This document shows positions 3,720 through 3,884 of a stretch of DNA of 8,762 nt, one piece after another; the stretch's first letter is position 1, and each line of letters opens with the position of its first letter. Source of the DNA: a virus (Duplodnaviria > Heunggongvirae > Uroviricota > Caudoviricetes); IMG/VR virus record IMGVR_UViG_2548876943_000018, one strand, 5' to 3'. The notes beneath the pieces are model-generated. The model saw only the letters and a program-made list of their open reading frames with translations, was not told where the DNA came from and made no database searches. The translations under genes and the position numbers were made by a program.

Positions 3720-3884
3720 ATGGCAAGGATTATTGTCAACATCAGCGCAACAGTTTTCACCCTTATGCTCTTATTTAGGGCATTGTTCACTTACATTTAT
3801 CCAGACACACTTCCTTTCGATATAGCTATCATCGACTGGCTTGTCGTAGCTTCAGGTTCAGGTGCTGCCATTTCTTCTATCTGA
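3720..3884 (+). CDS. Hypothetical 54-aa hydrophobic peptide ([54 protein letters not shown])
   Basis: ATG at 3720 with AGGAAA 7 nt upstream; TGA at 3882-3884, right at the prophage/csiD junction. Two hydrophobic stretches. Hand-translated (under 60 aa). Confidence 0.3.

Follow-up and report, generated by a model that had tools for sequence, protein, structure and literature searches.

The 54-codon open reading frame at positions 3720-3884 (plus strand) of the analysed stretch of DNA, which comprises 8,762 nucleotides and is referred to here as the window, is with high confidence the 5' remnant of a prophage cargo gene, a so-called moron, that became fused by a deletion to the middle of the host gene glaH (also csiD). 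As judged from its identity to the corresponding region of E. coli O55:H7 CB9615, the reading frame represents codons 1-54 of a 307-codon DUF4760 gene followed by a chimeric TGA. It is an ordinary deletion scar that contains a fragment of an already annotated gene family, and not a new small gene.

The reading frame starts with the ATG at 3720 and ends with the TGA at 3882-3884. It is preceded by the ribosome-binding site AGGA at 3707-3710, located 9 nt 5' of the start codon, and relatives of the gene keep a purine-rich Shine-Dalgarno sequence at the equivalent position. In the parent protein, Kyte-Doolittle windows exceed 1.5 at residues 1-26 and 33-59, and the AlphaFold model of a relative shows helices at 2-25 and 35-61. 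The reading frame, its ribosome-binding site and its two hydrophobic segments, all of which had been described in an earlier note on this DNA, were thus confirmed in the sequence, by the hydropathy analysis and by the structure model. Two minus-strand reading frames overlapping the region (3668-3790 and 3797-3949) were rejected as mechanical open reading frames, the purifying selection acting on the plus-strand frame of the parent gene.

The same ATG opens a 924-bp gene in E. coli CB9615 which encodes a protein of 307 aa that RefSeq already lists under the name “DUF4760 domain-containing protein” (WP_000101041.1; Pfam PF15956). Positions 3720-3882 of the window correspond to 6493-6655 of the CB9615 locus (L001) with an identity of 100%, the reading frame in CB9615 running on to 7416. 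The stub occupies the orthologous position, as it equals the codons 1-54 of the gene encoding WP_000101041.1 and the upstream region matches as well: its ribosome-binding site, leader and promoter are identical to those of the CB9615 gene. Hence the stub resembles the DUF4760 genes of E. coli ssrA prophages in its first 54 codons and in all upstream signals, but differs from them in keeping only the residues 1-54 of 307, without the domain or any of the invariant motifs. The identity of the stub to the parent sequence points to a recent event; the complete lack of mutations relative to CB9615 is expected if the event was recent, yet it provides no sign of decay.

The Pfam DUF4760 domain covers the residues 106-252 of the parent protein (55.7 bits, cut-off 25) and is entirely deleted in the window. 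The PHROGs families matching the parent span its residues 40-302 and are all of “unknown function”. In an alignment of 31 relatives from Enterobacteriaceae and Pseudomonas (42-79% identity to the first row) the residues 1-54 represent the least conserved portion of the family, and the invariant motifs KRYPDT, GMGWWIQ, RRxHTLN, NYFEFLAQGI and DLDxxLLxECF are all located past residue 58, so that the absence of conserved family motifs from the stub can be read directly from the alignment. A Pfam search with the 54-aa product returned no match, the gathering score of the DUF4760 profile not being reached. According to these comparisons the stub is best regarded as a fragment of a DUF4760 gene and not as a member protein of the family.

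Two alleles of the parent gene differ at 28 synonymous and 4 non-synonymous sites (pS 0.14; pN/pS 0.04), and this low ratio across the full-length gene indicates that the long form is the selected form. In the confident AlphaFold model of the relative (pLDDT 81) four hydrophobic helices are located at the N-terminus, and the soluble domain is helical throughout. Based on this model the natural product is predicted to be a 307-aa inner-membrane protein with four membrane helices and a soluble cytoplasmic DUF4760 domain. Sequence searches with the parent protein against PADLOC, NCBIfam and the PDB revealed no meaningful match, a fold search with the parent family returned generic helical bundles alone and thus no functional lead, and in the literature DUF4760 was found in one paper only, as a table entry for a genomic island of Serratia. 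Our working guess, which is derived from the gene location only, is that the parent acts as a lysogen-expressed membrane protein in superinfection exclusion or defence.

The earlier note had offered as one of two readings that the frame is an autonomous gene for a small membrane peptide (a toxin, a holin-like protein or an exclusion factor) that evolved as such and is carried in the interval between the integrase gene (int) and the attachment site. Such a peptide could indeed be produced, given the ribosome-binding site, the two hydrophobic helices and the intact promoter and leader upstream. However, the 54-codon form occurs at a single clonal junction only, half of its stop codon consists of host DNA, the same codons elsewhere encode the N-terminal part of a protein with about 310 residues, and they represent the part of the family that is least conserved. 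The homologues are all approximately 300-330 aa long, and an independent short form was not found. Furthermore, the 54-aa product had no meaningful match in the family, defence and phage libraries (Pfam, PHROGs, PADLOC, NCBIfam, PDB). An autonomous small gene therefore seems very unlikely. What holds of this reading is that the int-att interval serves as a cargo slot and that its product is a membrane protein; that product, being 307 aa long, is not a small peptide. Likewise, the note's expectation of an undescribed small gene was not borne out, since the short form occurs in a single clonal lineage and the parent is already present in RefSeq.

As a remnant of the DUF4760 gene, the stub presumably has no selected function. 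Nevertheless, a membrane peptide with two helices could be produced from it each time transcription passes the leader, and the peptide predicted from the sequence would consist of helix 1 and a shorter version of helix 2, lacking the KKR anchor that comes next in the parent. The 54-aa product carries no name in any source of the public assembly collection. Clustering of proteins at 90% placed it together with unrelated proteins of 186-517 aa, one of them acetylornithine deacetylase-like, which looks like a clustering artefact of the short sequence.

The origin of the stop codon becomes apparent from the alignment of the window with its two parental sequences, both of which, together with the breakpoint, are directly observed. 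The similarity to the phage stops exactly at 3882 and the similarity to glaH begins at 3882/3883, where the GC content climbs from approximately 0.38 to approximately 0.53. The phage parent reads TTCTATCT followed by TCTGC and the host parent reads GGTATCGAT followed by GATGTGGCG, whereas in the window TTCTATCT is directly followed by the same GATGTGGCG. Each base of the junction is accounted for by the intact host allele (strain CFSAN004176) together with the phage allele. The two parents have a single T in common at the join and no other homology, and the junction contains neither an IS element nor a repeat. The TGA is chimeric, the T originating from the phage (or being shared) and the GA from a GAT codon of glaH. 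The stop codon, which the earlier note had placed exactly at the host junction, does straddle 3882/3883, but this junction is not the att boundary between prophage and host that the note had taken it for. The sequences instead indicate a deletion breakpoint with a microhomology of 1 nt (T) at 3882-3883.

The sequence of events would have been as follows. A lambdoid prophage integrated at ssrA would have carried a self-contained cassette between int and attP, the ancestral cassette presumably consisting of its own promoter, a 12-codon leader reading frame, a terminator hairpin and the 307-codon membrane-protein gene. In one E. coli lineage an illegitimate deletion relying on 1 nt of microhomology would then have removed everything from codon 55 of the DUF4760 gene up to codon 103 of glaH/csiD, including attR, the islands adjacent to ssrA and the remaining interval up to glaH. 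Measured in the arrangement of CB9615 the lost DNA amounts to 36.9 kb, and the interval there includes a tRNA-Ile gene (ileY) and an amylase gene. The join happens to form a TGA, giving rise to the 54-codon reading frame. Neither the 3' part of the DUF4760 gene nor the 5' part of glaH was detected within 10 kb on either side of the junction in ten contigs. The reciprocal junction was absent from IMG/VR and the JGI metagenomes, from which the observed junction, used as positive control, was absent as well.

The window positions 1-3227 represent the early-left/int end of a lambdoid prophage, with ea22-like, DUF551, DUF4222 and xis-like genes and a tyrosine integrase gene (2043-3227, plus strand), which is the final core gene of the phage ahead of the cargo slot. 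The integrase was identified by the Pfam matches Arm-DNA-bind_2 (4e-21) and Phage_integrase (9e-19) and is 100% identical, in its context, to that of the ssrA prophage of CB9615. The latter prophage is approximately 55 kb in size and its left-hand end adjoins the tmRNA gene ssrA. Since the window positions 1-3882 are 99.95% identical to the CB9615 prophage, the prophage of the deletion lineage presumably resides at ssrA, too. In five genomes the 3' core of ssrA (GGTTCAACTCCCGCCAGCTCCACCA), representing attR, was directly located exactly 101 bp past the stop codon of the full-length DUF4760 gene, and int and this attR enclose the complete 307-codon gene. The right-hand flanks of the core in these five genomes are of three kinds: a CP4-57-type integrase island, a ypjA remnant and IS66. 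The location of the core beyond the full-length stop codon identifies the DUF4760 gene as the last phage gene before attR and not as a gene spanning attP. The breakpoint is approximately 860 bp away from the att core (ssrA 3' end), and the core was not detected on either strand of the window. As attR is gone, the prophage can presumably no longer excise.

These findings bear on the second reading of the earlier note, according to which the gene spans attP and is split at each integration, 3882/3883 being the att junction and csiD the attB site. The frame does end exactly at the boundary between phage and host with int just upstream, as this scenario would predict. However, the phage integrated at ssrA has an intact gene with the att core past its stop codon and ssrA at its other end, no ssrA-like core is found in the window, and the single nucleotide shared at the join is far below the identical overlap that a tyrosine integrase needs. 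Moreover, csiD is located downstream of the ssrA island region and in the same orientation in the E. coli genomes examined, which is the geometry of a simple deletion. We consider a split at attP extremely unlikely. The note correctly proposed that the frame is the beginning of a longer phage gene and that its C-terminal end, in the form of the stop codon, derives from the junction; the assumption of a gene spanning attP is contradicted by the complete copies between int and attR in the five genomes.

A megablast search with the positions 3228-3900 against 5,426 complete E. coli genomes matched eight genomes. All eight matches end at window position 3882 within a 924-bp feature annotated as “DUF4760 domain-containing protein”, the junction of the window being present in none of the 5,426 complete RefSeq E. 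coli genomes searched. In the public assembly collection the exact 54-aa product was called on contigs in 49 blocks. All ten contigs that were fetched, which represent NCBI isolates, ENA metagenomes and Logan SRA assemblies, contain an identical 40-nt junction and share 99.5-100% identity with the window, providing direct evidence of clonal spread. Although the abrupt switch from phage to host identity together with the GC step might raise the suspicion of an assembly chimera or a sequencing artefact joining unrelated regions, the occurrence of the same 40 nt in ten contigs from different projects and assemblers, including one of 5.5 Mb, leaves this explanation a negligible probability. The identical junction in ten independent assemblies instead suggests one clonal deletion lineage. 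The 54-codon form was seen exclusively with this single junction, and no short reading frame was found in independent lineages.

On the host side of the breakpoint the window contains the 3' remnant of glaH/csiD (3883-4551, plus strand; codons 104-325), which matches the Pfam family CsiD (1e-120, profile positions 82-294), and the intact host genes lhgO, gabD and gabT (4571-8604, plus strand; reading frames of 422, 482 and 426-428 aa that match the annotated genes). From codon 104 onwards the remnant matches the intact glaH allele of strain CFSAN004176 with 100% identity, whereas the host part of the window shares just 96.25% identity with CB9615. In CB9615 a distance of 36.9 kb separates the DUF4760 gene from the downstream glaH-gabT region, which has the same orientation and matches window positions 3882-8605; the interval up to glaH comprises an integrase island, Hxs and ABC-three-component systems, ypjA, tRNA-Ile and the amylase gene. 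The remnant lacks the promoter, the start codon and the first 103 codons, and the glutarate hydroxylase GlaH is presumably inactivated. The possibility that the stub continues in frame into glaH was rejected, as the two are read in different frames (frame 0, 3720, for the stub and frame 1, 3883, for the remnant) and do not form a fusion protein.

Due to the deletion of the sigma-S-dependent promoter of glaH/csiD, lhgO-gabDT is now located directly downstream of the phage promoter and leader. No terminator above chance was found between the stub and lhgO-gabDT and, thus, read-through transcripts could enter these genes. The arrangement raises the possibility that the host catabolic operon has been transcriptionally rewired. 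Downstream of gabT a REP-like GC-rich palindrome (8698-8753, minus strand) produced a sub-threshold Rfam match to Antizyme_FSE (21.7 bits, gathering score 40) that is almost certainly due to chance or to a REP element. A separate case was observed in another E. coli genome (CP129272.1; L023, 5936-6768), in which the ssrA core as well as a DUF4760 gene and csiD, both in full length, are found within approximately 830 bp. Here the interval between ssrA and csiD, which amounts to tens of kb in CB9615, is absent while both genes are intact. Evidently this interval is highly variable or has been deleted repeatedly.

Deletions beside prophages can remove an att site and thereby ground them, as in the cryptic prophages of E. 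coli. The window resembles these cases in that one end of the deletion lies in the prophage and the other in the host, with attR and neighbouring host genes lost; it is unlike them in that its junction involves no IS element or repeat but only the 1-nt microhomology.

Morons are independently transcribed cargo genes of lambdoid phages that are found, for instance, in the int-att interval or downstream of Q. The parent cassette shares with them a candidate promoter of its own, a location in the int-attR or Q-lysis slot and the exchange of cargo between phages with the same integrase. The arrangement of int, the DUF4760 gene and attR at ssrA recurs in other phages with a more divergent allele, while in still other phages the DUF4760 cassette occupies the opposite strand between the antiterminator gene Q and the genes for holin and lysis. 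In Pseudomonas aeruginosa it is found at the edge of a prophage, adjoining queA. Conversely, PhiR12 phages with the same int harbour different cargo genes in the slot. The parent cassette hence appears to be a moron, as indicated by its candidate promoter and by its occurrence in variable cargo slots of otherwise unrelated phages. In the window this moron is broken, and the cassette further differs from typical morons in that its terminator-type hairpin is also located upstream of the gene, behind a conserved leader reading frame.

The post-int spacer in which these signals are located is AT-rich (GC 0.27-0.38). Its distal part (approximately 3452-3720) is conserved by about 98-99% between alleles differing by 14% at synonymous sites. 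The part beside int (3330-3450; GC 0.27) is conserved by approximately 80% between alleles, compared with the near-invariant distal part, and contains a second TTGACT/TTGACA-like element approximately 300 nt upstream of the gene, with relatives showing a similar distance. The distal part harbours a candidate extended -10 promoter of the cargo cassette at 3478-3507 (plus strand; TTGAAG, 18 nt including TGn, TATCCT), which was recognised by conservation: enterobacterial, Shewanella and MAG relatives all show the arrangement TTGNNN-18-TGnTANNNT 206-245 nt 5' of the start codon. On these grounds we infer that the element probably functions as a promoter.

Downstream of this candidate promoter follows a leader mini-ORF of 12 codons (MKKTLAVGFGEG and a stop codon; 3594-3632, plus strand) with GGAG located 6 nt upstream. 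Between this mini-ORF and the DUF4760 start a hairpin with a T-run resembling an intrinsic terminator and presumed to act as an attenuator was identified at 3678-3705 (plus strand). The terminator which the earlier note had placed upstream of the reading frame is real, namely a conserved stem-loop of 9 bp (5 GC pairs) with a T-run lying directly upstream. All 31 distinct leaders compared contain this hairpin, which represents the sole consensus structure in the leader according to RNAalifold, with compensatory changes in three of the nine pairs.

A comparable leader precedes every family gene examined, with one exception. The 31 distinct leaders were obtained from more than 40 loci in E. coli, Dryocola, Shewanella, Pseudomonas, Stutzerimonas, a proteobacterial MAG and many IMG/VR contigs. 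They contain an upstream reading frame (uORF) of 7-15 codons which ends in (V/I/T)-G-(F/Y/V/T)-G-(E/A)-G-stop and is followed by the GC hairpin with a U-tract and by the gene start 57-133 nt past the uORF stop. The loci with this arrangement include L002, L020, L024, L026, L030-L032 and L033-L079, the one exception being L079, the uORF of which has a 1-nt indel, and the leader is spread with the DUF4760 cargo family from E. coli to Pseudomonas, Shewanella and Halomonas. Codon changes in the uORF are found at third positions (GGT/GGA/GGC/GGG, TTT/TTC, TAT/TAC) with G-x-G-E-G-stop being preserved; some Pseudomonas leaders end in G-V-G-A-G. The codon GAA is used in 29 and the stop codon TAA in 27 of the 31 leaders. 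A comparable uORF was detected in only one of 1309 control windows. A scan of IMG/VR for the leader motif returned 37 matches, 25 of which are followed by a DUF4760 gene 68-87 nt downstream, while five have no reading frame around the motif. Two IMG/VR contigs, L102 (approximately 700-900) and L105 (approximately 1760-1870), contain a mini-ORF ending in VGFGEG-stop and a hairpin with no DUF4760 gene detectable downstream, and in L102 GIGYGEG and VGFGEG occur within one short reading frame. The leader may be used with other cargo as well.

Leader-peptide attenuators and arrest-peptide switches include the trp and his leaders, TnaC, SecM and the Erm leaders. The DUF4760 leader shares with these systems a short uORF with a good Shine-Dalgarno sequence, an intrinsic terminator that follows before the gene, and conservation of the peptide. 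The two features by which an attenuator is recognised, selection on the uORF at the peptide level and a terminator preceding the gene, were both found in the 31 leaders. Unlike the known systems the DUF4760 leader is conserved at the C-terminal G-x-G-E-G right before the stop codon. No conserved antiterminator pairing was found by RNAalifold of the leader, and the single-sequence fold (z = -2.2) revealed no obvious alternative structure. Scanning the entire window against Rfam with permissive E-values returned nothing relevant to 3228-3900, and a literature search for VGFGEG or GFGEG retrieved no paper with the motif. Taken from this conservation pattern, the leader is likely to represent an apparently undescribed leader-peptide attenuator. 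The copy upstream of the stub is intact in the window. More tentatively, and with somewhat less than even confidence, it might be an attenuator depending on the nascent peptide or the ribosome that now drives the 54-aa membrane peptide and maybe read-through into the glaH remnant, lhgO and gabDT.

The analysis thus removes a false “new small gene” and identifies an apparent att junction as a deletion scar, and it advises caution, since a reading frame ending exactly at a composition boundary can be the product of a truncation. The scar marks one clonal lineage of E. coli, in which it presumably inactivates glaH and should lock the prophage in. The leader could matter more than the stub itself: if it is a true attenuator, it would provide a handle on when the widespread DUF4760 cargo gene is switched on and, hence, on the role of this gene.
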